The notes under the pieces are model-generated. The model was not told the DNA's origin. It saw only the letters and a program-made list of their open reading frames with translations, and made no database searches. 41,953 nt of DNA from a virus. Both the position numbers and the translations under genes were made by a program. The stretch lies in IMG/VR virus record IMGVR_UViG_3300045988_168287, one strand, 5' to 3'. Of the stretch, positions 105-30,765 are shown piece by piece; the stretch's first letter is position 1; every line of letters begins with the position of its first letter.

Positions 105-187
105 AAAGGCGTTGCGGATAGTGGGACGGTATTCGGACGCTATATTATTAATAGCATTGGTTGTCTTCGGACAAACAATGTAAAAAA

Positions 188-1348
188 ATGTTTCCAACAC
201 CTAAAAAACTCTTATCGTCAAAAGATATAATAGGATATACTCTTCCAAGGTTGCATACTGGTAAGGATTGGTATGTAGATTTTTATGTTTATGATCCTAC
301 TATTGACGGACTCAAGCGAAAAAAGTATATGCTTAATAAATATGCTAAGAATGAGCGAAAGAAAATAGCATCAGTTCTCATCACTAACCTTACGCAATTG
401 CTTATATCTGGCTGGAATCCTTTTCTTAATTCAGATAAGTCAAGGGGTTATACTACCTGGGATGTCGTTATTAAACGTTATACCGATTATACCAAAATTG
501 CAGAGAAGAAAGGAATGCTCAAATCTAAGACTGCAGTCGACTATCGTAGTCGATTATCGGTATTGCTATCCTATATCGAGGAGGCAAAAATCTCAATAAA
601 GTACGTTTATCAGTTTGACAAAACTTTTGTCGTTGATTTTCTCGATTATATAGTCTTCGATAAGGAACGTTCACCTAAGACTCGTAACAATTACCGCACC
701 TGGTTATCTACATTTGCTACGTGGCTCGTAGATCGGCAGTATATTAAGGAAAATTGCGTTGAGAGCATATCAATGATGAAGGAGGGCGAAAAGTTTCGTG
801 ATGCCATTAAGATTGAAGACTTGCGAAAGCTCAAGGAGTACGCATTAGATAAATGCCCATGGTTCTATCTTGCCTGTATGATGGAATATTATACTTTCAT
901 TCGTCCTGAAGAGTTACGTCACATCAAAATTGGATATATATCAATTAAGTATCAGACAATTACTATACCTGCAGATGTATCAAAGAACAGGAAAGAGCAG
1001 GCGGTTGCTCTTAATGATACGATATTAAAGTTGATGATAGATCAAGGTATATTCAATAATCCTTCCTCTGATTATCTGTTTGGTAAAGATGTTAGACCAG
1101 GTAAAGAACAAATTGCTATTAATCGATTCAGACAAGAATGGGCACGAGTAAGGAAAGCGCTTGGCTTCCCTAACTCATACCAATTCTACAGTCTTAAGGA
1201 TTCTGGTATTCGAGATTTGGCTAATGCAGAAGGTATTGTTGTTGCACGAGACCAAGCACGCCATTCCGACATTTCTGTTACCAACAAATATCTCAAATCA
1301 GAAAAGGTTGCTCACGAAGAAACTAAGCATTTCCGAGGCGAACTATAA
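188..1348 (+). CDS. int: Tyrosine recombinase / phage integrase
   Basis: N-terminal Arm-type motif (GKDWYVDFYVYDP..GLKRKK). C-terminal box ARHSDISVTNKYL carries the His and the Tyr nucleophile. ATG at 188 is preferred to the in-frame TTG at 161 used by the ORF track. Confidence 0.9.
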   Translation: MFPTPKKLLSSKDIIGYTLPRLHTGKDWYVDFYVYDPTIDGLKRKKYMLNKYAKNERKKIASVLITNLTQLLISGWNPFLNSDKSRGYTTWDVVIKRYTDYTKIAEKKGMLKSKTAVDYRSRLSVLLSYIEEAKISIKYVYQFDKTFVVDFLDYIVFDKERSPKTRNNYRTWLSTFATWLVDRQYIKENCVESISMMKEGEKFRDAIKIEDLRKLKEYALDKCPWFYLACMMEYYTFIRPEELRHIKIGYISIKYQTITIPADVSKNRKEQAVALNDTILKLMIDQGIFNNPSSDYLFGKDVRPGKEQIAINRFRQEWARVRKALGFPNSYQFYSLKDSGIRDLANAEGIVVARDQARHSDISVTNKYLKSEKVAHEETKHFRGEL

Positions 1349-3281: not shown

Positions 3282-6200
3282 CTATTTATTGCTTTGTAAA
3301 CGTTGATAATGTTTCCATTCTCTATCCAGTTCTGCCATCGACAACTTTGCATGAACACCTGCAGCAAGCAAATCTCTCAAGTTATCGATAACTATGTTTG
3401 TATCATCGATAGTGTTCTTTAAGTCCTCGTTATCTGTCTGTACAGTAACCGAAGGAGCTGATACCACCGTCGCTCCACCTTGACCTATTGAGCGAGAAAT
3501 ATCAGCTGCAGTAAGTGTGCTAACTGTATTATTGCGCTGCGCCTGGTCTATAAGTTGTAGAGCAGGAAGGATAGAAGGATTGTTGACTGCATTATGGTTA
3601 GCAACAAATTCGCCTTCGTGCACAACTCCAGCTTCTCTTCTGTAGCGTTTACCAGACGTAAAACCACCCTCATAGTAGCCAGTCTCTTGAGCCTGCTGTT
3701 GCTTTTTGATAGTAGCTATCTGTATAGCACCTGCAGCTGCAGCAATACCTGCTGCTACTGGCGCAAGTGTTAAGTTGGCAGGAAATGGCACGCCCTTCAT
3801 GGCAGAACTATATGCTGCGATAGCTGATAGCGCAGTTTGAGCAATAGCTTGAGCAATTTGCATTGCTACCTGTTTACGAGCATATTTACTCTTAATCTTC
3901 GCAACTTCCTTCTCTTTCTTCTCTTCGAGCTTCTTTGTCTTGGCAGTATTGTTACCAGCTGCATTTATGAGTTTCTCATACTTTTTCTCGGTTACGGTAA
4001 CCTCGTAGTCAGATTGAGCAGCATAATACGACGACATTCCACTAAGCAGAGGAGAGACAGTATCCATTGCAGCCTGCATCTTAGTAACAAGATTATTACA
4101 CATATTTGCAGTCGCTTCCGACATGGCAGCCATAGCCTCTTGATGACTGATAACACCCTCTGTTTCCATACTCTTAATGTTATCAAGAGTAGACTTGTAT
4201 ATGTCAATATCAGAGGTTAGCAAGTTACCAACATTGAGACCATTAGGATGCTTGTCGCTATAATCTGCCTGTGCATTATTTGAAGCAGTGTTATATGCAG
4301 ATTGAACATTCTGCTTAAATTGCTCCCCTGCAGAGTTCTTAAGATTTTCAGAAGATTCAAGTTCTGCATAGTGAAGTCGAATCTTCTTTTTCATCTCTTC
4401 ATACTCTTCTTCCTTCAATAGCTTTTTAGAATGCAATGAATCAAGACCTTTGAGAGCAATATCTTCTTGCTCCTTAATGTCTTTACGCCCCCACTCTGCA
4501 CGATATTGAGCCAGGAGATCGTTATATCGTTGTTCTCGTGTCAGTTCTTGCTCTTTCTGTCGTTGCTTAATTTCTGTATCAATGTCGAGCCACTCCTGCG
4601 AATCCTTCTTGTATAGGCTTTGACGAGATTTGAGCATATTAATATCATTCTGATACATAGCTTCATTTAGCGCATCTTCATTATGATATAGCTCTTCTTT
4701 TAGCGCATTTTCACCTTTAAACAACTCCTCTTGAGCACCTTTTTTCTCGTATGCCATTTGTAAGTCTATAGCTATATTGGCATGTTTGCGCTGTATTTCT
4801 TCGTTATCCATCTTAAGCCGATCTTGCTGATATTGCTTTTCGAGCTCAGTCTTCTTCTTGAGTAATGCCTGTGCCTCGTCAGAGTCTTTGCCGTAGAGCT
4901 CTATTTGAGCATCTATACCCTTACTCTTGATTTCATACTGCTGCTGCATGAAGTCACGGTATGCGAGATTCTCATCTGTATAGCGACGGTAATTTTCTAC
5001 AAGTTCTGCATCTGTGATAGCTTGTTGAGCCTTGATGGCAGCCTGTAAGTCTTTTTTTGCCTGTGCTTCCTTACGTTTACGCTCAGCCTCTGCTTTTCGT
5101 GTAGCAATAGCAGCTTTACGTTCTTCTTGCTCTCGCTTCTTTCTCTCAGCTTCCGATTCGTACTCTTCGCTATTGTTAGAAGTAGATTGGTCTCCCTGGC
5201 TTCCAAGATCTTTGTTTGCCTTTCGAACATTCTTTAAATTCTCGGCTTCCTGCTTCTGTACCTCTCTATATTTTTCAAGATATACATTTTGCATCCTTGA
5301 CAAGTCATTTAGTTCGGCTTGATGGTTTCTGTTATATTGTTGTGCAATATTAAGACCATAACCTTCACGTTCAATATATGTTTCTTCATTCCAGCCTTCT
5401 TTGAAACCTTTTAACCCTCTATTGAATTGCCAATTGCCAACGCCTTGTGATACCGCATTGTATCCTTTCTCCGCATAGTGAGCAATGTTATTGGCTAAAG
5501 CTTGAAATTGAGAAGTGAATGTATGCGACATTTTTCCCCACCAATCATTAAGGTATTCTTCGTTCACATTCTGCTTTTCTCTTTCAAGTTCTTCTACCTT
5601 GGATAGGTATACGCGAGCTTTAGCTTGTGCCAGTATAGAATCCGTAAGGTTATCAACAGCCTTACGAGCATTATTTGAGTATATATTCTCGAGATTAAGA
5701 TTATCGAGATATCCAGGATATTTCTCTTGCAGCTTTTTGATAGCTTCTTTTCTAACTTCGTCAGAAGATGATTTGTCCTGTGCCAATTTCACAAGTGATG
5801 ACAATTCTGCTACTTCTGAGCGGCAGTCTGCTGCAGCTTCTTCATTAGCTTCATTCAATTCTCTTTGCGCCTTTGTCGCCTTATCAGCTTTCGACGTAAA
5901 AGCAACAAGAGTTGCTGTTACTGCTACCATTGTAGCCAAAATTGCAGAATACGGATTGGCAAGTATAGCCTTATTCCATAGCTGCTGAGCAGCTGTAGCT
6001 AGAGTTATCTGTCTAGTACCAACTTTTACGGCTATATTATATGCTTCTTGAGCTGATGCTGCAAACGCTGTACGTACAGCTTTTAGTTTATCTGCTGCAG
6101 CACTCGCCATCTTGGCTGCTGTTGCAGCTTTCTCAGCAATAGCTTCTGCCTTGACAACCAAAGTGTAGGCAACGATACCAGATGCAAGCACTACTATAAC

Positions 6201-19529: not shown

Positions 19530-20364
19530 TGAATACGAATGCTGATGAATCTTTAGTATTTTTGAAGCTCTCGATATGCGCAGCATCATAGGATGCTGTC
19601 TCTGGATATATAGAGTATATCTCAGGGTTCTGCTCCACCTCGCGCTCTATACGTCGATAGAGTGGGGTAGAGATGGCTGCTTTTCCGCTTACGTTCCATT
19701 TGTCTGTGAAGTCGCATATCAGCTGCAGTATTCCTGCATACGGTGTCAGCCTATCATGGTCATCGCATCGCCATGCATCGAGGATATCATCCATCTGTTC
19801 GTCTGATATTCTCAAGCGTAGAGTCTCGTCGGCATCGATGATAGCTCGCTGCATAGCCTGCCAGTCTTGATACGACCGTGCCTTGGTTGCCATGGGCGAA
19901 AAGAAGAAATAATTCTCAGTATAGATGTAGCGGATATAGTTCTTTGCCTGCATCGTCTTGCCCCATTCTTTAGATCGTAGCAAATCCACGGTCATAGCCC
20001 TTGCCCTGCATAGTGCTGTGCGTAGCTGTCCCTCGAGCGCATCCACTCTCTGCTTCGATGCAGGCGATATGGTGTCGTTTGACACAATGCCAAAGCCTGT
20101 AGGTGTCAACACCAGGTCCAACTGTCTGAACACCGAGAGAAAACCATCCACACATACCATTATCTTATAGTACTGCAGTAGTCTGCCATTCTCTCCTTCT
20201 TCAGCTATCCGCTTCAAGCCTGCTTCGCCAAGCAGATTGCTTGAGTAATTATCGTTAGCAATGTCTATTGCAGGCATCACACTTTCAAACACCTCGCTAT
20301 GAGCTGAGCAACCTACTGGCAGCGCTTGCTCGAAGTCTTCTTTAGATATTGTTATCGTTGTCAT
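19522..20364 (-). CDS. Hypothetical structural-module protein
   Basis: Probable start MTTITISKEDFE at 20364. It follows the portal gene. Confidence 0.45.
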   Translation of the reverse strand: MTTITISKEDFEQALPVGCSAHSEVFESVMPAIDIANDNYSSNLLGEAGLKRIAEEGENGRLLQYYKIMVCVDGFLSVFRQLDLVLTPTGFGIVSNDTISPASKQRVDALEGQLRTALCRARAMTVDLLRSKEWGKTMQAKNYIRYIYTENYFFFSPMATKARSYQDWQAMQRAIIDADETLRLRISDEQMDDILDAWRCDDHDRLTPYAGILQLICDFTDKWNVSGKAAISTPLYRRIEREVEQNPEIYSIYPETASYDAAHIESFKNTKDSSAFVFNG

Positions 20365-21805
20365 TGCTATTGCTATTAGAATTAGTAACCTTCTTGGCAT
20401 CTTTGTTCTCATCGAGAGTGGTGAGCTGTATCATTGGCACATCCACCGTCACCTTGTCGCTCCATCCGTTGTAGTGGAGTATCAGATGATATGGCTTGGT
20501 CAGTATGTCGTGGCATGGCTTCTCTATAGCCTGCTTCAGCGTGAAAAGCTCGCGCTTGTCGCTACCTGAATTGTTCATCTGACTCTTGCCTGGTGTGGCT
20601 CCCACCAGGTTAGGATGAATGCCGAAGGCGAAGCAGAGAGCATTCGAAGCTTCGCTCATATCGTCGCTCCAGTTACCGCCTTCCTTCTTGTTGGCATCGT
20701 TGAGTGGCACTATGCGCACCATTCTGTTCTCCTTGCCGTTTGGGTCTACATAGTATCCGCTAATCATAGCCTTACCCGCGTTCTCGATGCCTGTTACGAA
20801 GTCAATGATGTTCTGCTTCTCTTCCTCCTTGCGCTTTTTGCGTAGTGGCTCGTCTGATATTCCTTCGTTGTCGCAAACGTTGTCCCAATACTCTTCGTGC
20901 ACTTCTATCTGTACTCGTGGAGCCGAAGTATTCTTAATCATATATCGTTTGCCAATACCTATCAAGCGATAGATATCAAACCAGGCATCGCGGAATATCG
21001 AAGAGTAATATGGTACAGGGTACATCTGACAGCCTGGTGTTGCCATACGGCTCAATATAGCAAACTTGCGCTCCTTGGTAGGTTTGTTCTTGAGTCCTGT
21101 CTCAGGATTAGGCATTTTGCCCATTCGTACCATCAGGTCGCCAAGCGGATTGAAATAGTCGAGCAATGGTATCACCTCAATCTTGCTTTCGTCAAAGAAA
21201 CCGAGTCGCCAGTCGCCATAGAACACATGTTCCGACTTGCCTGAAGCTGTAGAACCTGCATATTCAAATCTGCAGTATGAGGCATCCTTGTTTCTTACCG
21301 TCACTATCTTTGTGCCATCCTTCGATAGGATGATAACCGTAACCGAGAAGAAGAAGAACTTGAAGTCGGTAACCTGCTCGAGGAATACCTCCTGTAGCGA
21401 GTTGTATAGACAGAAGTCGCGAATTTCTTTGTCGCTTACGTCTTTTCTCGTCTCTCTATCCACGAAGCGCACTCCCTGGCCATAGCACGACACGATGTTG
21501 AACTGCTGACATTGTGCCGTCACCATATTCTCCATCAGTTTCTTTCTCACCTCGTAGGGCAATTGGTCATTCCTGCCCCATTGCACATACTTATACTCTC
21601 GCTTCTTCACCACTATTTGTCTCACGCTCGATGCTCCTGGCAGATCGTCATCATCGAAAACATTCATAGAGTCGCCACCATATTCTGAAGCTACAGAGTT
21701 GCCTTCCGACGACGAGCCTATTCCTGTAGGCACAATTCTATATTTGCGATAGCCGTCAGCATCTGCATGCGATGTAGGCTGCAGGGTATTTTTGTTTTTG
21801 CTCAT
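20342..21805 (-). CDS. Portal protein
   Basis: 487 aa from MSKNKNT (ATG 21805). Size, an acidic/Asn-rich C-terminal tail, and a segment ..FGIHPNLVGATPGKSQMNNSGSDKRELF.. are typical of portal cores (from memory). The 95-aa upstream extension in the track overlaps another gene. Confidence 0.6.
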   Translation of the reverse strand: MSKNKNTLQPTSHADADGYRKYRIVPTGIGSSSEGNSVASEYGGDSMNVFDDDDLPGASSVRQIVVKKREYKYVQWGRNDQLPYEVRKKLMENMVTAQCQQFNIVSCYGQGVRFVDRETRKDVSDKEIRDFCLYNSLQEVFLEQVTDFKFFFFSVTVIILSKDGTKIVTVRNKDASYCRFEYAGSTASGKSEHVFYGDWRLGFFDESKIEVIPLLDYFNPLGDLMVRMGKMPNPETGLKNKPTKERKFAILSRMATPGCQMYPVPYYSSIFRDAWFDIYRLIGIGKRYMIKNTSAPRVQIEVHEEYWDNVCDNEGISDEPLRKKRKEEEKQNIIDFVTGIENAGKAMISGYYVDPNGKENRMVRIVPLNDANKKEGGNWSDDMSEASNALCFAFGIHPNLVGATPGKSQMNNSGSDKRELFTLKQAIEKPCHDILTKPYHLILHYNGWSDKVTVDVPMIQLTTLDENKDAKKVTNSNSNSNDNDNNI

Positions 21806-22047
21806 AAGTATATTTTTTGATTGTTTATCTGTATGATGAATATCTGAGGAATGGTACGCAGCTCTCGATTCTTGGGATTTCTCAAGCGTATAAAACCTTG
21901 TCGCCATGCCACATGGTGCACAAGCCAGCCCTTGTAGTGAATAATGGCGCCTGTTTCGCCCTTGTAAGCGTATACGTCTACAAGGGCTCGATGCTGATAT
22001 GCTTGGTCTATCTGGCGCAGCATCTCGGTGAAATGGATAGCTTTCAT
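21802..22047 (-). CDS. Small hypothetical protein (81 aa), translationally coupled on both sides
   Basis: ATGA overlaps at 22044..22047 (with the upstream gene) and at 21802..21805 (with the portal start). Confidence 0.55.
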   Translation of the reverse strand: MKAIHFTEMLRQIDQAYQHRALVDVYAYKGETGAIIHYKGWLVHHVAWRQGFIRLRNPKNRELRTIPQIFIIQINNQKIYL

Positions 22048-23090
22048 TCGAAGGTATTGTCAAAGGTGTTGTCGAATATTCTGCCTGCACGTTCCATATT
22101 CAGCACATTATGATTACGCTGAGCATACTGGTATGAGAAGGTGAATCGAGGCAGCGACGTAGGCTTGTTGTCGTATTCCGACTTCGAGTCTGTTATTATC
22201 ACCTCTTTGCCCACGTTCGGGTTGCCATTCTTGAAGGTTACTATATGCACGTTCATCGAACGGAATAGCTCGTCCACCCAGTTTGCCATGGTGAACGACA
22301 GTATGCCTGTGTCGGCTTTGAACACCCTTGTTTCGGTAATCGCATAATTGCGTTGGGTTTTGCCTATATACGCTTGCTCGCGTTTGTACGATGGCGCTAT
22401 GGTGTGTGTGCCTGTGCAATAGATTAGTTCCTCCACTCCGAACGAGTTGTCGAATACCAGAACTGGAGCGCAGTCAGGCTCATCAAAATCGATTGTGAAC
22501 CGGAACGTGCGCTTTCCAGCCTGGACATCATAACATAGCAACGTCTTGCCTGCCATGGCAAACTGCTCTGCCGACACATCGAGTGTGGTATAGCGGTCGT
22601 TGCCTCCAACAGGCAATATCGAGAAAGATTTATTAGTGCCATCGTCATAGTAGGCTGTCGCGGTAGCCTTGTCGGTACCGATATAGTGTAGATATTCCAG
22701 GCGATGAAGACTCGTCACCTTCTCGCCCTCGAGCAATGTCAGATAGTGAGTCTCTATGAAGTCTTGAGCAGTAGTATTGATATCCACCTCGCTATATATG
22801 ATATCTGCCTCCATGCTTTTGGTAGACATGATGGTCTCGTTGTCGGCATCCTGTTCGGCAATCTGTATCTTCAACTTCACCTTCAGACGCTTCTTGGCAT
22901 AAGGAGTGAGTAGACGGTCGAGCTCGGCAAGCGTAATCACACCTGCCAGCGGATATAGATATTCCTGGTATACCTGTTCGTCGTCTACCGTCATCGTCAC
23001 CATGGCGCGGTTGCCACCTATCGAGAATTCCACATCGGGAACATTCGATGATAAATATGTGCCAGATATAGATTGAGTTATTGTTATCAT
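22044..23090 (-). CDS. Hypothetical virion-module protein (348 aa)
   Basis: Start MITITQS at 23090 fits the -7 box at 23109..23116. It is the first gene of the portal transcription unit. Confidence 0.5.
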   Translation of the reverse strand: MITITQSISGTYLSSNVPDVEFSIGGNRAMVTMTVDDEQVYQEYLYPLAGVITLAELDRLLTPYAKKRLKVKLKIQIAEQDADNETIMSTKSMEADIIYSEVDINTTAQDFIETHYLTLLEGEKVTSLHRLEYLHYIGTDKATATAYYDDGTNKSFSILPVGGNDRYTTLDVSAEQFAMAGKTLLCYDVQAGKRTFRFTIDFDEPDCAPVLVFDNSFGVEELIYCTGTHTIAPSYKREQAYIGKTQRNYAITETRVFKADTGILSFTMANWVDELFRSMNVHIVTFKNGNPNVGKEVIITDSKSEYDNKPTSLPRFTFSYQYAQRNHNVLNMERAGRIFDNTFDNTFE

Positions 23091-25234: not shown

Positions 25235-25391
25235 GGCAAAAGGAGCGACACCACCAAGCAATTGAAGGGAAATGTTACCGCAAAATGATAAATTTAACAT
25301 TTCCACATTATATATATAATATTCCCGATAGATGAGATGCTTGGTATTCTCCATTTTCGTAAGCTCACGAAAATGGTCGCGCCCACAAATG

Positions 25392-25489
25392 CGACTATTC
25401 GTGTAAACCCTCACGACTACTCGAATCAGCCATTTCGGCTATTCGCATCGTCCATTTCGACTATTCGCGTAAACCCTCACGGTTACTCG
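25392..25489. repeat. Direct repeats: 32-mer x2 plus CCATTTCGRCTATTCGC x2
   Basis: 25392..25423 and 25458..25489 share 29/32 nt (CGACTATTCG.GTAAACCCTCACG..TACTCG). 17-mers lie at 25430..25446 and 25452..25468 (16/17). Confidence 0.85.
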
Positions 25490-25555
25490 CCTTGGCAAAC
25501 GATACATAAAAAAAAGCAAAAAGAGTATTATTATCAATACTTTTATGGCTAAATA

Positions 25556-25587
25556 TTTGTATATTAGTATTATTTTTACTACCTTTG
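25556..25587 (+). promoter_or_regulatory. Canonical Bacteroidota promoter for hicAB
   Basis: TTTG (25556..25559), a 20-nt spacer, TACCTTTG (25580..25587), and the ATG at 25613. Confidence 0.65.
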
Positions 25588-25612
25588 CATTGTCAAACAA
25601 AAGCTCTTTGAT

Positions 25613-25807
25613 ATGAGAAAGTACAAAGTATCTGAAGTCATCAAGCTGTTGGAGCGAGACGGATGGGTGAAAATAGCTGAGAAAGGCGACCACAAACAAT
25701 TCAAACACCCGGACAAACCAGGCAAGGTGACAGTAAGAGGGCAGAAGAGCGAGGTGCTTAGCCAATTTCTTCTGAACAGCATTTGGAAACAAGCGGGGTG
25801 GCGATAA
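25613..25807 (+). CDS. hicA: HicA-family mRNA interferase toxin
   Basis: 64 aa. KVSEVIKLLERDGW..KGDHKQFKHPDKPGKVTV matches the HicA (YcfA-like) pattern. Confidence 0.85.
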   Translation: MRKYKVSEVIKLLERDGWVKIAEKGDHKQFKHPDKPGKVTVRGQKSEVLSQFLLNSIWKQAGWR

Positions 25808-25865
25808 GCGCCCCGCCCCTTTCCGAGGTTTGACTAAAAAATAGACAACTAACACCTATATTGAT

Positions 25866-26276
25866 ATGGAAAAGATTATAGTAGAAGTAAGATGGTGCGA
25901 CCATAACTTTGGAGCCACATTATCAGACAACGTACCAGGAGCCATCGTCTTAACAGCCAAAACCTACGATGAACTGCAGAAAGAAGTGCCTGAAACACTC
26001 CAGTTTCACCTTGAAGGGATGAAAGCCGATGGCGATGAGATTCCGCAATGGCTCGCCGAGGGCGATTACGAGTTCGTCTACCACCTCGACACTGCTGCGC
26101 TCATACGATCGTGCGAGCGCTACGCCTCGCTTGCTGCCATTTCGCGAGCTTCCGGAGTGAACGAGCGACAACTAAGCCACTACGCCAATGGACTTAAGAA
26201 GGCACGCACGCAGCAGCGCGAGCGCATAATAGAAGGATTGCACAGAATAGGACGCGAACTGCTGTCCATATCATAG
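25866..26276 (+). CDS. hicB: HicB-family antitoxin with C-terminal HTH
   Basis: 136 aa immediately downstream of hicA. The N-terminus is HicB-like (VRWCDHNFGATL..) and the C-terminus is XRE-like (ISRASGVNERQLSHYANGLKKA). Confidence 0.8.
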   Translation: MEKIIVEVRWCDHNFGATLSDNVPGAIVLTAKTYDELQKEVPETLQFHLEGMKADGDEIPQWLAEGDYEFVYHLDTAALIRSCERYASLAAISRASGVNERQLSHYANGLKKARTQQRERIIEGLHRIGRELLSIS

Positions 26277-26297
26277 AGCATATTTGACAATCACAGT

Positions 26298-26338
26298 AAG
26301 CCCGACCGCCAGAAATGGAGGTCGGGCTTTTATATTTG
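26298..26338 (+). terminator. Rho-independent terminator of hicAB
   Basis: AAGCCCGAC (26298..26306) pairs with GTCGGGCTT (26321..26329), followed by TTTATATTT. Confidence 0.8.
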
Positions 26339-26340
26339 TT

Positions 26341-26377
26341 AAAGAAAAAGCCCTCGATGCTTCACGCACAGAGGGCT
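26341..26377 (-). terminator. Rho-independent terminator, convergent with the hicAB terminator
   Basis: AGCCCTC (26349..26355) pairs with GAGGGCT (26371..26377). On the - strand TTTTTCTTT follows. Confidence 0.6.
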
Positions 26378-26464
26378 AAAGAGTTCTTTTAATCATGAAA
26401 CGTTGCGAAGTCAGAACTTGCAGCGGTCATGGTGCCGCATGGTCGTGCGGCGGTGTTGAATTAA

Positions 26465-26653
26465 TTAAACAGTGACCATTTCAATATCCTTGGCAGTCGT
26501 CTTGATAAGCCCCTCCAAAGCTTCTGTAAAAGCCTGTTCGTTCTCACTCCTTAAAGCGTTCATCTCAGCGGATACTGCTGCACGCTCCTCGTCGGTCGTT
26601 GCCAAGCGGTTGCGCTCAGCAAGAGCCTTAATCTTATCCTTATAATCTGTCAT
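26465..26653 (-). CDS. Small hypothetical helical protein (62 aa)
   Basis: Start MTDYKDKIKAL at 26653. The track's longer version runs through a 5' UTR hairpin. Confidence 0.45.
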   Translation of the reverse strand: MTDYKDKIKALAERNRLATTDEERAAVSAEMNALRSENEQAFTEALEGLIKTTAKDIEMVTV

Positions 26654-26898
26654 AATAATATATCTTGTTAGGCAAGTACAATCGTCGTGGAGGTCGACTG
26701 ATTGTACGGATACTTGCAAATAATGATTCTACGAATCAACATTTATTAAAAGCACTTGCAAAGTAACTCAAAAAAATCTGTTTCTACAAGTTTTTGCAAT
26801 AATTTATGGTTTCTACCTATTGTTTTTGCTCGTTTTAATGCTTAAAACGAGCTATATAGATATATAAAAGCATGGTTTTTTACCTCTTTTTCCATAGC

Positions 26899-26949
26899 TG
26901 CAAAATTCAACCACCTTGTTTTCAATGAGTTATGTGGTTGAATTTTGCA
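26899..26949. other. 16-bp perfect inverted repeat with 19-nt loop in a 490-nt noncoding stretch
   Basis: TGCAAAATTCAACCAC (26899..26914) pairs with GTGGTTGAATTTTGCA (26934..26949). There is no flanking T-run, so it is not a typical terminator. Confidence 0.8.
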
Positions 26950-27112
26950 ACTTGCGCTTTCTGCTGTCTTTGCAGCACTACACCGCCCTACGCCAAGTTG
27001 GCAATTGCCCCTTATGCTCATAGCGGAATATGTAGCGAGATTTGCAACCATGTAAATGATTTTGTCTTGTCGCTCGTGGGCGGTTGTGCGAAACGTGAAC
27101 ATGGCAATTGCC

Positions 27113-27151
27113 AAAAACAAAAACGCCTCGAGACTGCGAAGTCCCGAGGCT
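27113..27151 (-). terminator. Terminator T, copy 1 (after paralogue 3)
   Basis: GCCTCG-A-GACT [GCGA] AGTC-C-CGAGGC (27126..27151). On the - strand GTTTTTGTTTTT follows. It lies within a 55-nt block identical to 27851..27905. Confidence 0.7.
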
Positions 27152-27210
27152 GGTGTGCGTCTGTAAGCCAGCAGACGACTTGGTGTTCAATATGGGGCAT
27201 TATCCCAAGC

Positions 27211-27468
27211 TTATTCAATACTATCAGCTGCCAAACGAATTCGGTTACTCAAATCTATCAAAGCACCTTTGAGTAGATACTTTTCTTCCTCAGAAAAATC
27301 CGTTGGTTTCTTATTGCCATCAATGCCATTAAGTTTGTGGTATAGCCACGAATTACTTTTACCGAAGTAGCGCTTAGACAAGTCAGCCCATGATATGGAT
27401 ATGAGTATATCCTTAAGCGTTGACTTGATGGTGCTTGTTGTAGTTGGGGAAAGAGTCATAGTTGCCAT
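27211..27468 (-). CDS. Small protein, paralogue 3 of the YF.KS.SW family (DUF5053-like, from memory)
   Basis: 85 aa. ISWADLSKRYFGKSNSWLYHKLNG..FSEEEKYLLKGALIDLSNRIRLAADSI aligns with the proteins at 27938..28225 and 28319..28720. Confidence 0.65.
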   Translation of the reverse strand: MATMTLSPTTTSTIKSTLKDILISISWADLSKRYFGKSNSWLYHKLNGIDGNKKPTDFSEEEKYLLKGALIDLSNRIRLAADSIE

Positions 27469-27519
27469 AATAATATCCTTTCTTATTTTTGGAGCCTCGC
27501 CACATGGGCGAGGCTTGGG

Positions 27520-27675
27520 TTAATAAAGTGGTTCGTCGAGGAGTTCTGCCATTAGCGTGTTAATGAACAATCTAAGTTCTGGGTCTCCGTTAGGATAACT
27601 TCTCTTGTAGTTTCTAACATGCTCGATAAGTTCGAACTCCGCTTCTGTTAATGCTAATTTTCTTTTTGCTTTCAT
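27520..27675 (-). CDS. Unlisted small ORF (51 aa), first gene of cassette A
   Basis: Hand translation gives MKAKRKLALTEAEFELIEHVRNYKRSYPNGDPELRLFINTLMAELLDEPLY. The ATG lies 26 nt downstream of the -7 box. It is below the 60-aa cutoff of the track. Confidence 0.45.
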   Translation of the reverse strand: MKAKRKLALTEAEFELIEHVRNYKRSYPNGDPELRLFINTLMAELLDEPLY

Positions 27676-27700
27676 ATATTATTGCTTTAATTGAACAATG

Positions 27701-27732
27701 CAAAGGTAATACTTTTATTCGTACTATGCAAA
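27701..27732 (-). promoter_or_regulatory. Canonical promoter of cassette A
   Basis: On the - strand: TTTG (27732..27729), a 20-nt spacer, TACCTTTG (27708..27701). The 19-mer TAATACTTTTATTCGTACT occurs at 27707..27725 (in the spacer) and 27738..27756 (upstream of -33). Confidence 0.65.
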
Positions 27733-27764
27733 TAAAATAATACTTTTATTCGTACTTTAACATA

Positions 27765-27855
27765 AAAAATAAATAAAGCCACCTACGCATCTGCGCAAGT
27801 GGCTTCGGTAAAAGATAATACTAATAACCAACTCTTATATAAGAGTTAACACATG
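27765..27855 (-). repeat. Repeat R1 copy A (about 91 nt) containing a terminator
   Basis: Near-identical to 29033..29127 (one indel and a few mismatches). Stem AAGCCAC (27776..27782) pairs with GTGGCTT (27799..27805), followed on the - strand by TTTATTTATTTTTT. Confidence 0.8.
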
Positions 27856-27863
27856 GCAATTGC

Positions 27864-27902
27864 CAAAAACAAAAACGCCTCGAGACTGCGAAGTCCCGAG
27901 GC
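27864..27902 (-). terminator. Terminator T, copy 2 (after paralogue 2)
   Basis: Same 55-nt block as 27100..27154, including the GGCAATTGCC palindrome (27855..27864). Confidence 0.7.
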
Positions 27903-27937
27903 TGGCGTGCGCTGAAAGCTCAACAGCGACTTAGTGT

Positions 27938-28225
27938 TCAATTAAACGGCGCATCAGTAGCCGGAGCTTTAATATTGTCTGCAGCTTTACGTATGCGGTC
28001 GGCAAGATCGTTAAGCGCACAATAAAGTTTGTCCGCTTCTTCAGGTGTGAAACCACCTACACCACCATTGCCATCAATGCCATACATCTTTTGCTGAAAC
28101 CACGATATTGACTTATCGAAGTACGTACGAGAAACTTCACGCCATGACACAGCAAGGTAAATGTCACGCATACGCTTCTTCATGTCAACTATCTTCTCTT
28201 GTTTTTGTTTTGCTAATACTTCCAT
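27938..28225 (-). CDS. Small protein, paralogue 2 of the YF.KS.SW family
   Basis: 95 aa. VSWREVSRTYFDKSISWFQQKMYG..FTPEEADKLYCALNDLADRIRKAADNI. Confidence 0.65.
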   Translation of the reverse strand: MEVLAKQKQEKIVDMKKRMRDIYLAVSWREVSRTYFDKSISWFQQKMYGIDGNGGVGGFTPEEADKLYCALNDLADRIRKAADNIKAPATDAPFN

Positions 28226-28249
28226 ATTAATGTTATTTATATTATCTTT

Positions 28250-28280
28250 AAAAGCCCCGAGACCTTGAAGTCCCGAGGCT
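28250..28280 (-). terminator. Terminator T-like, copy 3 (after paralogue 1)
   Basis: Imperfect 11-position stem (28253..28263 with 28270..28280, 2 mismatches). It shares GAAGTCCCGAGGCTGGTGTG with copy 1 (copy 2 differs at one base). The T-run on the - strand is short. Confidence 0.45.
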
Positions 28281-28318
28281 GGTGTGTGATAGAAAACAAT
28301 TGTCTAACTTTAATTACT

Positions 28319-28720
28319 TCAAGCCAGACGAAGTGAACCGATACGTGAGCTTATGTCTTGCAGAGCATTATTGAAAATGCGTTTCTGTTCCTCATTCAAG
28401 GTGTAGACTTTGCCACGCACCTGTGTGCCGTTAATGCGCTGTGAGAGCCATGCTGAGCTCTTGCCAAAGTAATGTTTGGCAATATACGACAAGGGAAGCA
28501 AATGATAGTCCTCGTCACTTATGCGTGAACGCAAAGCTGCAACCTCATTCTCTATGTCTGTGAGCTTTTGATTGATAAACTCTTTTGCCTCTACCTTTAC
28601 ATCCTCATCAGCATGGCTTTCAAGCCATGTTAGAATTTCTTTCTTTCGTGCTTCGCTTGCTGCATCGTTATTGCCTGCAAGATTTGCATACTCTCTTAAA
28701 AGTTTCTCTGTTGCTGCCAT
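28319..28720 (-). CDS. Small protein, paralogue 1 of the YF.KS.SW family, with an N-terminal helical extension
   Basis: 133 aa. LSYIAKHYFGKSSAWLSQRING..LNEEQKRIFNNALQDISSRIGSL. Confidence 0.65.
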   Translation of the reverse strand: MAATEKLLREYANLAGNNDAASEARKKEILTWLESHADEDVKVEAKEFINQKLTDIENEVAALRSRISDEDYHLLPLSYIAKHYFGKSSAWLSQRINGTQVRGKVYTLNEEQKRIFNNALQDISSRIGSLRLA

Positions 28721-28767
28721 ATTTGTATTTTTTTTTGAGTCCTCTCACTATGGAGAGGACTCGGTTT

Positions 28768-28926
28768 TTACTTTCGCTTTTTAAGAAGCTTATTCAAATC
28801 TTCGAGAAGCATGTCAACTCTCTTGTTGATAACTTCATCTTCGAAATGAAGCACCTTGGCTACTTTCATGTAGTCTGCGATTTCTCGCTTCTTTCGGTCG
28901 ATGTCTTTTTCTAATTCTTCATCCAT
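28768..28926 (-). CDS. Unlisted small ORF (52 aa), first gene of cassette B
   Basis: Hand translation gives MDEELEKDIDRKKREIADYMKVAKVLHFEDEVINKRVDMLLEDLNKLLKKRK. It lies downstream of the cassette B promoter and is below the track cutoff. Confidence 0.45.
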   Translation of the reverse strand: MDEELEKDIDRKKREIADYMKVAKVLHFEDEVINKRVDMLLEDLNKLLKKRK

Positions 28927-28970
28927 AAGCTGAAATTTTAAAGTTTAACAATTTGTTTTCTAACACATTG

Positions 28971-29002
28971 CAAAGGTACATAAAATATTTGTTATGTGCA
29001 AA
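28971..29002 (-). promoter_or_regulatory. Canonical promoter of cassette B
   Basis: On the - strand: TTTG (29002..28999), a 20-nt spacer, TACCTTTG (28978..28971). 21-mers at 28977..28997 and 29007..29027 each contain ACATAA-N8-TTATGT. Confidence 0.65.
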
Positions 29003-29032
29003 TAAATACATAAATATTTTGTTATGTATATC

Positions 29033-29127
29033 AAAAAAAATAAATAAAGCCACCTACGCATCTCGCGCAAGTGGCTTCGGTAAAAGATAATACTAATAAC
29101 CAAAAATTATATAAGAGTTAACACATG
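29033..29127 (-). repeat. Repeat R1 copy B containing the terL terminator
   Basis: Near-identical to 27765..27855. It begins 4 nt after the terL stop. The hairpin AGCCAC..GTGGCT is followed on the - strand by TTTATTTATTTTTTTT. Confidence 0.8.
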
Positions 29128-29130
29128 ACA

Positions 29131-30765
29131 TTATCCTCCATAAGTATTTGTGGTGCCACCTGCGCCTTGGAACACAGGCTTTGTCTCTGCACCTATGCAG
29201 AGCACGTCGAAGGCATCAGAACCATCGGTGCGTGCTTCGAGCTTATCCTCCTCGGTCTCAGCCAGCTTCTCTCCTCGCTTGTCTTTCTTGCCATTATATA
29301 CTCCTGCAGAGGTAATGGAGATAAGCAGGTCGGGATTGTTGTCTCTATTGATGAGCACCTGCAGATTGCCTCTGCCACGCAGCATCTTATTGATAAGCGC
29401 ATTCTTCTCGATGTGTCCCATCGGATTGCCAAGGTAGACATCTCTGACAGCCCAGCCCATGGAGCGTAGCGACTTGAGAACCTCTCGATGTGGGTCGTTG
29501 TAGTGAAGTCCCCAGTTGGTGCCAACCATGGTGGAGTCGTAGTAGAATATCACCTGTCTGCGACGATGGAAGTGATAGTATTTGTTGAAGTCTTCGAGTA
29601 GCTCGGGTATCTTGCGCTCGTATTTCACGAAGAATGATTTTATAATCCTCAGCTTGCCATCCTTCACTTGGCCAACCACGAGCCAGTTGATAAGGTTGTT
29701 GCTGTCGAAGGCTATGAGTAGAGGCAACCTGTCGTCGCAGTCGGCATCCATTCTGCAGTCGTTAGGTATGATGCCACCTTCAGCATTATCGAGAGTGTGG
29801 AGGTTGAGCACCGATTCGTTAGGAGCGGTATAGAGATTAACATCCTCACGCAAACCACCATAGAAGCCATCTGCAGATACTCCCACTCTCTGGCACATTA
29901 TTGATGTGGCAAAGGTAAGTGGAGGCAAATCGCGCTTGGCTCTACGTATAAACTCTTCGCCCAGCAGGGCGAGGTTCTCGATACTTGAGTATTCCTTGTA
30001 TAGTAGACAATTGGAGCGGAAGAAGTTGAGTTGAGCATTCAGCTCGTCGAGTCGCTTGCTTATAGCATCGTGGAGTTCTGGACGCTTGGCAAGTTTTTGC
30101 TTGAGCTTCCATATCTGGAAGATTATTCCCTCGATTACCTTCACAAGTTCAGGATCTTGCTTATCCTTATAAGAGAGAAACCACGAACCCTTTTTGGTGA
30201 TAGGCATATCTGAAGTAATTGTCATGCCATGGTGGAGCGGAAAGTTCTTGAAGTACATTTCGTTTCCACGGTTGGCTTGGAAGGTCTCGTCCTTCAGCTG
30301 CTCATAGTCGATAAACTTTGCCTCGTCGATGATGAGATAGTCGAGCGACATGGAGTTGGAGGTGCCGCTACGATCCTGAGATATCACGTTGCACACGGAA
30401 CCATTATAAAAGCTGATGGTATTCTCCCAGTTAGCAGGAGTGAAGATAGGTGTCTTCCAATGTAGGCGCTTCCATGGTTTTTTGCCAACAACATAGTGCA
30501 AGTCTCGTTTGAAGCCCCAACGCTCGAGATGAATGAGCATTGAGGGAAGTATATTGGTAAGGCAGCGCTTAACCGATGGTGCAACAAAACCGCCCATACT
30601 TCCAGGCATTCCCTGAAAGCACGACTGCAGACGACGTGCCTGGATGGCTCCTTTGCCCACACCACGCCCGGCAACAATCACCTCGTCGCGTGTGTTCATT
30701 GCCAGGCTGTAGTATTGGGCATCGTTGAAGTATTGTCGATATGGCTGCTCTTTATTGTCAATCAT
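29131..30765 (-). CDS. terL: Terminase large subunit
   Basis: 544 aa. Walker A-like VAGRGVGKG, Walker B LDYLIIDEAKF, and a C-terminal nuclease-like half. An 8-nt overlap with the upstream small gene. Confidence 0.85.
   Translation of the reverse strand: MIDNKEQPYRQYFNDAQYYSLAMNTRDEVIVAGRGVGKGAIQARRLQSCFQGMPGSMGGFVAPSVKRCLTNILPSMLIHLERWGFKRDLHYVVGKKPWKRLHWKTPIFTPANWENTISFYNGSVCNVISQDRSGTSNSMSLDYLIIDEAKFIDYEQLKDETFQANRGNEMYFKNFPLHHGMTITSDMPITKKGSWFLSYKDKQDPELVKVIEGIIFQIWKLKQKLAKRPELHDAISKRLDELNAQLNFFRSNCLLYKEYSSIENLALLGEEFIRRAKRDLPPLTFATSIMCQRVGVSADGFYGGLREDVNLYTAPNESVLNLHTLDNAEGGIIPNDCRMDADCDDRLPLLIAFDSNNLINWLVVGQVKDGKLRIIKSFFVKYERKIPELLEDFNKYYHFHRRRQVIFYYDSTMVGTNWGLHYNDPHREVLKSLRSMGWAVRDVYLGNPMGHIEKNALINKMLRGRGNLQVLINRDNNPDLLISITSAGVYNGKKDKRGEKLAETEEDKLEARTDGSDAFDVLCIGAETKPVFQGAGGTTNTYGG

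Follow-up and report, generated by a model that had tools for sequence, protein, structure and literature searches.

DUF5053 genes and small upstream genes form a bicistronic accessory cassette in prophages and chromosomes of Bacteroidota

The two cassettes and their parts

The window analysed here, a stretch of 41,953 nt from a Prevotella-type prophage (IMG/VR record IMGVR_UViG_3300045988_168287), carries directly downstream of its terminase large subunit gene (terL) two cassettes, A and B, which lie on the - strand and in which the same order of parts occurs twice (table 1): a terminator-like repeat (R1), a promoter with a duplicated palindrome, an open reading frame (ORF) of 51 or 52 codons, a GC-rich hairpin followed by an A-rich tract, one or two genes of the Pfam family DUF5053 (PF16476) and a second terminator-like repeat (R2). 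A preliminary description of the window had pointed out this double arrangement, and repeats, promoters, ORFs, hairpins and DUF5053 genes were all located again to within 2 nt and are far beyond chance. Two uncharacterised protein families make up the module, a bicistronic accessory cassette that is probably autoregulated. The best explanation that can be offered for it, with a probability of about 0.35, is a negatively autoregulated toxin-antitoxin (TA) module of the reverse gene order, or an addiction/exclusion module, in which the DUF5053 protein would be the repressor and the small protein encoded by the first gene its partner.

Relatives were collected with DUF5053 as the seed (26 IMG/VR loci and 80 genome loci, the latter from Prevotella, Hoylesella, Bacteroides, Phocaeicola, Parabacteroides, Odoribacter, Butyricimonas, Muribaculaceae, Rikenellaceae and one metagenome-assembled genome (MAG) of Flavobacteriaceae) and, in a second IMG/VR sample, with ORF51, the first gene of cassette B; the 85 ORF51 genes of this sample correspond to 30 unique sequences and ~17 clusters at 80% identity. 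The architecture recurs across 190 related loci (L numbers below), phages of Porphyromonas gingivalis among them.

Promoters of Bacteroidota follow the consensus TTTG at -33 and TAnnTTTG at -7. Promoters A and B both have TTTG and TAccTTTG at these positions, and a duplicated element, O1 and O2, flanks the -33 box. What had been described beforehand as 19-21-nt elements proved to be two perfect palindromes spaced by 30 nt in cassette A and an exact 19/19 duplicate spaced by 31 nt in cassette B; the pattern ACATAA-N8-TTATGT of cassette A has two sites in the window versus 0.15 expected. The same design was found in a survey of 116 unique promoters upstream of ORF51-family genes, in which 98 carry a palindrome (at least 5/7 + 5/7 matches) exactly between the -33 and -7 boxes, with the consensus TA(A/G)TACG-N6-CGTA(C/T)TA, and 46 have a second copy, O1, 29-31 nt upstream that is identical to their own O2 at no fewer than 14 of 20 positions (1/116 in shuffled controls). 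Other cassette types keep the geometry and change the half-site: TACTAW..WTAGTA operators accompany the type with an ORF51-like gene and the DUF5053 gene d95 (TACTAA/TTAGTA in L004-L007), ACATAA-N8-TTATGT operators accompany cassettes with ORF52 and a long DUF5053 gene (the window, L191, L192 and L193), and further long-form cassettes have the half-sites CAATAATA..TATTATTG and TATTCAAC..GTTTATTA. Each operator type of the window is present only at its own cassette promoter, and of the 105 operator-like sites in 1.11 Mb of related loci 94 have a DUF5053 gene <750 nt downstream. No other part of the module is as conserved as this design of promoter and operator.

Many ORF51-type cassettes also have a ATGTTAAA motif just 5' of O1, ~75 nt upstream of the -7 box (the window at ~27760-27767 on the - strand, L008, L010-L012, L014, L015, L019-L022 and L024), which is absent in cassette A, and a conserved leader, (C/T)A(G/T)TGTTCAA(T/A)TAAA, is found 3' of the -7 box in cassettes of this type.

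The first genes, ORF51 and ORF52, had been described as missed by the ORF track, and they are real genes under purifying selection, as follows from their conserved homologues and from the bias of substitutions towards the third codon position (6/8/21 differences by codon position between ORF51 and its counterpart in L008, 5/5/21 between ORF52 and that in L191). Lack of coding conservation in homologues had been named as one of the observations that would refute the proposal, and the opposite was found. ORF51 has 52 database homologues, none with a Pfam domain, and the family, which is not in Pfam, is 45-80% identical across Prevotella, Bacteroides, Porphyromonas, Odoribacter, Muribaculaceae and one Flavobacteriaceae MAG; in the alignment, the motif E..IE..RNY..SYPNG.P is nearly invariant and the N-terminus is the least conserved segment. 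An AlphaFold2 (AF2) model of ORF51, with a predicted local distance difference test score (pLDDT) of 78.7, has an extended N-terminus and two helices (residues 10-25 and 31-44). The homologues of ORF52 are 38-76% identical to it and always precede a long-form DUF5053 gene; no family match was found for it in Pfam, PHROGs, NCBIfam or PADLOC, and PHROGs, PADLOC and NCBIfam gave no match for any of six small proteins. A weak but recurring resemblance of ORF51 to a segment of DsrC/TusE, 'LELTEEHWDIINFLREYY', is insignificant (E 0.07 for Pfam DsrC, 0.009 in NCBIfam and 0.6 for PDB entry 1yx3).

The small proteins encoded last in the cassettes had been taken for a single family, and d133, d95 and d85 all match Pfam DUF5053, well above the gathering cut-off of 26.6 bits. 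The family comprises ~800 clusters at 50% identity; 792 homologues were found for d85, and orthologues of d133 with 132-134 amino acids (aa) are encoded in L009, L029, L032 and L191-L193. Multidomain fusions were sought among the best 150 DUF5053 representatives, nearly all of which are 57-226 aa long, the exception being P0175, with 312 aa and two matched DUF5053 stretches.

The GC hairpins with their A-rich tracts, expected between the genes at 28737..28762 and 27493..27515, are both present, and are stable (-18.3 kcal/mol, z -8.6, for hairpin A; -17.7 kcal/mol, z -4.4, for hairpin B). In a survey of 72 unique ORF51-DUF5053 spacers, a GC-rich stem with a median of 10 bp was found in 49, versus 18 of the 72 shuffled controls, while ~20 of the pairs have short gaps (7-30 nt) and no hairpin; the stem sequences vary between lineages. 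The 10 nt 3' of the hairpins are 60% A, and four or more T occur in the following 8 nt after only 3 of the 49 hairpins, so that a role as intrinsic terminator on the sense strand was rejected. The idea that the hairpin is a protein-bound RNA copy of the operator, as for Aca2, was also discarded, since there is no relation between the stems, which are GC-rich, and the AT-rich operators. We infer a role at the mRNA level, either in the protection of the 3' end or in a partial attenuation that would set the ratio of the products. The A-rich tract would be a region from which translation starts independently of a Shine-Dalgarno sequence, as is typical of Bacteroidota.

The two copies of R1 are 94% identical over ~100 nt, and the R1 core has two occurrences in the window versus 0.02 expected. 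The R2 copies at 27851-27911 and 27099-27159 are 98% identical, and the R2 core has three matches versus 0.03 expected, the third copy (28228-28288), behind d133, being weaker (66% identity; hairpin fold z -5.1). An 18-nt AT-rich segment of R1 (AAAGATAATACTAATAAC; 27811-27828 and 29083-29100) is 89% complementary to 28232-28249, just 5' of the d95 start.

Table 1. Features of the cassette region and of other genes of the window (positions in nt of the window)
Feature	Position	Strand	Description
terL	29131..30765	-	544 aa, terminase large subunit
R1 copy A	29029..29130	-	abuts terL stop codon; terminator-like hairpin, stem 29046-29078, then T-run (terminator scan)
Operator O1-A	29008..29027	-	ACATAA-N8-TTATGT, 5' of -33 box; exact pattern match
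-33 element, promoter A	28999..29002	-	TTTG, read from sequence
Operator O2-A	28978..28997	-	ACATAA-N8-TTATGT; fills -33/-7 spacer; last base is first base of -7 box
-7 box, promoter A	28971..28978	-	TACCTTTG
Cassette A, gene order		-	ORF52, d133, d95
ORF52	28768..28926	-	52-aa Lys/Glu-rich helical protein, first gene of cassette A
Hairpin A	28735..28764	-	10-bp GC stem, then A9; reads as terminator on + strand (terminator scan)
d133	28319..28720	-	133 aa, long-form DUF5053 with ~70-aa helical N-terminal extension; Pfam 9e-22, 77 bits, residues 73-130
R2-like hairpin 3' of d133	28254..28279	-	followed by TTTTAAAG; weak terminator; recombination junction
d95	27938..28225	-	95 aa, short-form DUF5053 paralogue, third gene of cassette A; Pfam 2.5e-28, 98 bits
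R2 closing cassette A	27851..27911	-	stem 27877-27902, then T-run
R1 copy B	27758..27858	-	terminator-like hairpin, stem 27775-27806 (terminator scan)
Operator O1-B	27738..27757	-	aAGTAC-N8-GTATTA, 5' of -33 box
-33 element, promoter B	27729..27732	-	TTTG, read from sequence
Operator O2-B	27707..27726	-	TAGTAC-N8-GTATTA; in -33/-7 spacer, overlaps TA of -7 box
-7 box, promoter B	27701..27708	-	TACCTTTG
Cassette B, gene order		-	ORF51, d85
ORF51	27520..27675	-	51-aa two-helix protein, first gene of cassette B; motif E..IE..RNY..SYPNG.P
Hairpin B	27493..27515	-	9-bp GC stem, then A-rich tract
d85	27211..27468	-	85 aa, short-form DUF5053; Pfam 1.3e-30, 105 bits
R2 closing cassette B	27099..27159	-	stem 27125-27150, then T-run
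orf62	26465..26653	-	N-terminal remnant of third, long-form DUF5053 gene, after cassette B
hicAB	25613..25807, 25866..26276	+	two genes; PHROG toxin 5e-18
Portal homologue	20342..22090	-	582 aa; tblastn to annotated portal proteins
Tyrosine integrase	161..1348	+	Pfam 2e-12

Gene pairing, distribution and exchange of cassettes

Immediately upstream of 136 DUF5053 ORFs, an ORF51-family gene was found in 83 cases, another DUF5053 gene in 5, something else in 29 and nothing in 19, and ORF52-like genes precede the long-form (132-134-aa) DUF5053 genes of L009, L029, L191, L192 and L193, whereas in L032 the ORF52-like gene is frameshifted and the DUF5053 gene intact. Some three to four families of first genes were seen, each with its own DUF5053 subtype. 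The window cassettes thus represent two conserved types rather than arbitrary cargo, and the earlier view of a variable first gene in front of a conserved regulator had to be given up. The dependence within the pair is one-sided: in the ORF51-seeded sample ORF51 is followed by DUF5053 in 84 of 84 scorable cases, and at least 12 losses of ORF51, by deletion, truncation or interruption, have left DUF5053 intact, from which it follows that the first gene depends on the second and not the reverse.

The module is found in phages and also outside them. The P. gingivalis phages in GenBank contain a complete ORF51-type module beside MazF-like, HicAB and integrase genes, all annotated as hypothetical; a DNA similarity search of GenBank phages with the cassette region of the window gave no match. 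In prophages the cassettes are located in accessory regions beside HicAB, MazF-like or YafQ loci. Among ten genome loci inspected in detail, several are stand-alone, in contexts such as GNAT/module/sulfatase, EPSP synthase/module/ABC-3, module/FolD and TonB receptor/two modules/ISL3 transposase, and the 131 nearest large neighbours in the 80 genome loci belong to 97 Pfam families, mostly housekeeping and with no dominant phage family. A search of plasmids for DUF5053 was without result. Adjacency to the terL family of this phage is limited to 26 of 186 loci. Tandem arrays of two or three paralogous cassettes with different operators occur in the window and in Prevotella amnii (L048, with three cassettes). 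Taken together, this distribution suggests that the module spreads like a TA cassette rather than like an anti-CRISPR locus.

The window and phages L001-L007, although 97-99.7% identical in the flanks, differ in the region 25300..29200 of the window by whole or half cassettes: an ORF51-like gene replaces ORF52 and d133, ORF51 is precisely deleted, or hicAB is present or absent. The breakpoints fall at R1 (~28971), at the hairpin 28254, at 27660/27516 and at 26757, and the comparison marks the cassette region as a recombination hot spot of this phage lineage and shows the hairpin to be a recombination joint as well. The gene fragment orf62 is what is left of a third, decayed cassette: in L005/L007 (5350-6235) its N-terminus continues into a 132-aa DUF5053 protein (Pfam 5e-29, 100 bits in L005), and the third cassette is complete there, with a promoter containing TATTCAAC-N4-GTTTATTA, a 49-aa ORF, a hairpin and the 132-aa DUF5053 gene, while in the window promoter, first gene and DUF5053 domain of this locus are all deleted. 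In another cassette of L005/L007 (~3880-3960), in which ORF51 has been cleanly deleted (ATGAAAGCAAAAAGA being joined straight to the hairpin), the -33 TTTG of the same promoter has become TTTA, which may be a compensating promoter-down change.

L051 (299-1138) contains a toxin gene of the YafQ family (Pfam 1.7e-29), preceded by a small ORF of its own, and 39 nt behind the toxin gene lies a DUF5053 gene without ORF51 or operator. DUF5053 was considered here as the YafQ antitoxin and rejected, because YafQ already has the upstream ORF as candidate antitoxin and DUF5053 looks like a tag-along third gene; DUF5053 can ride third on other TA operons, as d95 does behind d133 in the window.

The probable operator-binding protein

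The geometry of the palindrome and its position in the promoter are the same with a first gene of the ORF51 family, of the ORF52 family, with the 49-aa ORF of L005 or with no first gene, so that DUF5053 is the only protein in common. Moreover, ORF51 has been lost, and DUF5053 kept along with an intact, often perfect, spacer palindrome, in at least eight independent lineages (L005/L007, L028, L034, L046, L053, L069, L076 and L082). On account of the palindromes kept without ORF51, of their constancy across first genes and of the short N-termini of some ORF51 proteins, DUF5053 is probably the operator-binding autorepressor of its own promoter.

The last argument concerns ribbon-helix-helix repressors (Arc/CopG/MetJ), which have an N-terminal beta-strand of ~6 residues ahead of helix A. 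On the basis of its topology ORF51 was at first considered a repressor of this kind, and the hypothesis was rejected: in some members of the family helix 1 starts after only three residues (MKLTEKE in the P. gingivalis phage and MELTEDE in L035), which is too short for a DNA-reading beta-strand, the N-terminus is poorly conserved, the best fold match to a ribbon-helix-helix protein had an E-value of 9.3 (Foldseek), and operators persist without ORF51.

The AF2 model of d85 (pLDDT 81.8) consists of a helix (26-34), a GKS turn with a conserved Gly, a second helix (38-45), a short beta-hairpin and a long C-terminal helix, so that the stretch WADLSKRYF-GKS-NSWLYHKL, which precedes the latter, is a candidate helix-turn-helix (HTH); the candidate recognition helices of d133 and d95 are SSAWLSQRING and ISWFQQKMYG, respectively. 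This helix tracks the operator half-site: WLYHK is found with RRTACR in 55 of 70 cases, WFQQ/WFQH pairs with ACTAT, and WL(S/L/Y)QR with ACATAA or ATAAT. That DUF5053 is an HTH protein is therefore plausible in terms of the model. DUF5053 has no HTH match in Pfam, sequence and profile searches of the PDB gave neither a match nor a solved structure, and the N-terminal domain of lambda cI compares with the DUF5053 model at a TM-score of 0.46 and an E-value of 4.2 (Foldseek). Thus, the suggestion of the preliminary description that the conserved last gene encodes a DNA-binding protein holds in so far as DUF5053 is the best candidate for the autoregulator, but the likeness to HTH proteins is not statistically supported by Pfam, Foldseek or hhalign.

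As for d95, it is a counter-example to the pairing of DUF5053 type and operator, and it was considered and dismissed as the determinant of the cassette A operator. A 97%-identical copy is found in L004-L007 behind an ORF51-like gene with TACTAA/TTAGTA operators, a type not found in the window, and the homology with these phages begins exactly at 28254; recombination at the hairpin located there indicates that d95 is a passenger in the window.

Possible functions of the module

Control of the cassettes could then be envisaged as follows. A strong Bacteroidota promoter would hold a 20-bp palindromic operator exactly in its spacer and, in ~40% of the cassettes, a second operator 30-31 bp, or ~three helical turns, upstream; a dimer of the cassette's own DUF5053 protein would bind these palindromes through the HTH-like motif (YF-GKS-xSWLYHK) and block RNA polymerase. 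The tiny first gene, ORF51 with the short and ORF52 with the long DUF5053 form, would provide a two-helix partner that depends on DUF5053, which in turn would be the transcriptional repressor and probably also the direct binding partner of the small protein. The GC hairpin and the A-rich tract would most likely set the ratio of the two products, the former as a stabiliser of the mRNA 3' end or as a partial attenuator and the latter as an unstructured landing site for ribosomes, and the hairpin serves in addition as the joint at which cassette halves are exchanged; R1 and R2 would shield each cassette from the other and from transcription that reads through from terL. The likeliest class would be a reverse-order module such as HigBA, MqsRA or HicAB, with the small protein as the harmful or effector component. 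Of this scheme, the sequences show the anatomy, its conservation, the asymmetry of the gene pair, the local occurrence of the operators and the distribution among genomes; DNA binding by DUF5053, its contact with the small protein, toxicity and the part played by the hairpin are inferred.

In HigB-HigA, MqsR-MqsA and HicA-HicB the gene behind a small first gene encodes a DNA-binding protein, which represses the operon through palindromes that overlap the promoter. The cassettes resemble these reverse-order type II TA systems in having a separate promoter and terminator for an operon of two small co-directional genes, a first gene that never occurs without the second, common orphan second genes, a patchy distribution on chromosomes and prophages, and paralogues of diverged specificity; even the neighbouring hicAB shares the design, with a palindrome in the promoter spacer. 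It is the dependence asymmetry, the self-limited regulation, the stand-alone copies, the association with TA loci and the tandem orthogonal paralogues that make the TA interpretation fit best, and an autoregulated TA-like pair had indeed been the second option of the preliminary description.

Several points weigh against it. Neither the small proteins nor DUF5053 show a likeness to any known toxin, antitoxin or defence protein (Pfam, PHROGs, NCBIfam, PADLOC and PDB sequences), and, for a type II toxin, a soluble helical hairpin of only 45-52 aa would be out of the ordinary. With 40-60 nt (47-51 nt in the window) and a stable GC hairpin between them, the two genes are not translationally coupled, and a hairpin ahead of the putative antitoxin gene would be expected to reduce the amount of antitoxin made. 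The best Foldseek E-values for the d85 model are 2.8 (PDB) and 0.31 (BFVD), with recurrent XRE/Cro-like matches at TM-scores of 0.45-0.54, and hhalign gives a probability of 0.17% for DUF5053 versus XRE, the latter represented by a mini-alignment of five sequences. The family of the first gene co-varies with the operator too, and the recognition helix classes other than WLYHK have only 1-3 examples each. Related sequences are included in the counts and, the operator scans having covered the 42-kb phage and 1.11 Mb of related loci, a regulon elsewhere in the host genomes is conceivable.

Such a regulon is what an antagonist-repressor switch would call for, in which DUF5053 represses further targets, the small protein releases the repression and neither is toxic; most of the evidence for the TA reading would suit it equally. 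The model is SinI-SinR of Bacillus subtilis, where a helical-hairpin protein of ~50 aa is encoded immediately upstream of a small HTH repressor, and the cassettes similarly have a two-helix small protein directly upstream of a putative HTH protein whose long C-terminal helix is a possible binding site. An antagonist-repressor pairing would also explain why subfamilies stay paired (ORF51/d85, ORF51-like/d95 and ORF52/d133) and why the small gene is never alone and the regulator often is. We nonetheless regard this switch as doubtful. Whereas SinR controls a regulon, DUF5053 operators are seen only at the cassettes' own promoters, with none outside the cassette promoters in the 42-kb phage and 94/105 sites linked to cassettes in ~1.1 Mb; stand-alone cassettes in unrelated chromosomal contexts have no conserved neighbour to regulate, tandem self-regulating paralogues would have no obvious purpose, and there is no sequence or significant structural similarity of the cassette proteins to SinI or SinR. 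The roles could also be reversed, with ORF51 as the operator-binding autorepressor, as Arc or CopG, and DUF5053 as the regulated cargo. In the immI region of P22 (Pant-arc-ant) the tiny first protein, Arc, is the ribbon-helix-helix repressor, and the cassettes resemble it as moron-like autoregulated mini-operons of a temperate phage, in which operators cover the promoter and the first gene is tiny. The predicted topology of ORF51 (an extended N-terminus, then two helices) would suit, the operator type changes along with the ORF51 subfamily, d95 stands behind two operator types (in the window and L005) and so does not fix operator identity there, and the deletion of ORF51 in L005/L007 coincides with the change of the -33 box. 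But the operators remain perfect in at least eight lineages without ORF51 and keep their geometry with an unrelated or no first gene, the N-terminus of ORF51 is its least conserved segment and in some members too short for the strand, and no significant fold or sequence match to ribbon-helix-helix proteins was found; since the evidence points to the second gene as the repressor, this reversal is very unlikely. A further type of variable accessory module in prophages is that of Silpe et al., in which a small DNA-binding protein is combined with a very small ORF; reportedly, the two are divergently transcribed, the small ORF is activated by the transcription factor, and its product inactivates the phage repressor. 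The DUF5053 cassettes, in contrast, have co-directional genes and a promoter design that indicates repression, and are also found outside prophages.

The reading that the preliminary description had placed first, in which ORF51 and ORF52 inhibit CRISPR-Cas or another defence and DUF5053 is a new repressor of the anti-CRISPR-associated (Aca) type, draws on the operon logic of loci with anti-CRISPR (acr) and aca genes. Aca1 and Aca2 repress anti-CRISPR operons (Stanley et al. 2019, as cited in PMC8008677), and the cassettes share with the Aca1/Aca2 loci a strong promoter, two inverted repeats, one or more small upstream genes, a conserved putative HTH gene in last position and a place in the accessory regions of prophages. 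DUF5053 is preceded by first genes of different folds, the loss of first genes with retention of the regulator would also fit, the anti-CRISPR proteins (Acrs) of Bacteroidota phages are largely undiscovered (PMC8008677), and the ORF51 homologue of a P. gingivalis phage is borderline in PaCRISPR, with a score of 0.50 (PMC10367356). What stood of this proposal are the self-contained operons and the inverted repeats of the promoters; the variable cargo and the confinement to mobile elements did not. Indeed, the first gene belongs to a conserved family in 83/136 cases, across host families with different CRISPR types, it is strictly paired with the regulator subfamily, as would not be needed by an inhibitor of a host target, each small gene has a regulator to itself instead of several acr genes sharing one aca, stand-alone chromosomal copies lie among housekeeping genes, which is unusual for anti-defence loci, and the cassette proteins have no similarity to known Acr or Aca proteins in the libraries searched. 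An anti-defence role is thus unlikely, and the same holds for the bolder proposal that the anti-defence loci so far missing from Bacteroidota phages are these DUF5053 cassettes, with ORF51 and ORF52 as new and unusually conserved inhibitors of a defence system common to Bacteroidales and DUF5053 as the first Aca-type repressor family of the phylum. Regulation of the phage life cycle from beside the packaging genes, be it of late genes or of the lysis-lysogeny decision, would suit the position directly after terL in this lineage and the temperate nature of the phage, which follows from its integrase; it is most improbable, as phages with 97-99.7% identity in the flanks do not have the same cassettes, which are therefore dispensable, operators are absent elsewhere in the phage, the module is also found outside prophages and the vicinity of terL is the exception among the loci.

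No mention of DUF5053 (PF16476) and no description of the two-gene module were found in the literature searched. Both families now gain a concrete, testable context, that of a self-repressing two-gene cassette with a defined putative operator, which is conserved from Prevotella and Bacteroides to P. gingivalis phages. If the module acts in TA or abortive infection, it would represent a new toxin fold together with a new antitoxin-repressor family for gut and oral Bacteroidota, which are poorly charted for such systems; if it is an anti-defence module, it would open the largely unknown Acr repertoire of Bacteroidota phages, with DUF5053 as a guilt-by-association marker for more anti-defence genes in gut and oral Bacteroidota viromes. 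The orthogonal operator-repressor pairs, with at least three specificities (RTAC...GTAY, ACTAW...WTAGT and ACATAA...TTATGT), could be of use as parts for genetic circuits in Bacteroides.

With regard to the surroundings of the cassettes, the gene named terL was assigned from tblastn only, by 24-33% identity over >90% of its length to annotated terminase large subunits from Microcystis, Polaribacter, Flavobacterium and Bacteroides phages, its product having no match in Pfam or PHROGs, and most structural proteins of this phage are without a Pfam or PHROG match. The cassettes had been said to sit in moron position between terminase and portal; taken literally this is correct, but ~7 kb containing hicAB and seven further ORFs separate them from the portal gene. 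The hicAB genes lie next to the cassettes on the opposite strand, and their promoter (25545-25593) shares its -7 box and leader (TACCTTTGCATTGT) with that of cassette B and carries two palindromes, TAGTA-N7-TACTA between the -33 and -7 boxes and AGTATT-N6-AATACT upstream. Rfam gave no match for the whole window at the gathering threshold, nor for 26300-29200 at E-values up to 1. Finally, 3' of cassette B a stretch of 381 nt without a credible ORF (26720..27100, - strand), which is kept in related phages up to 26757, could be a non-coding RNA or a protein-binding region: it holds GGCAATTGCC palindromes and folds unusually well (z -6.4), with a 19-bp stem between 26896-26914 and 26934-26952 that is 95% complementary.

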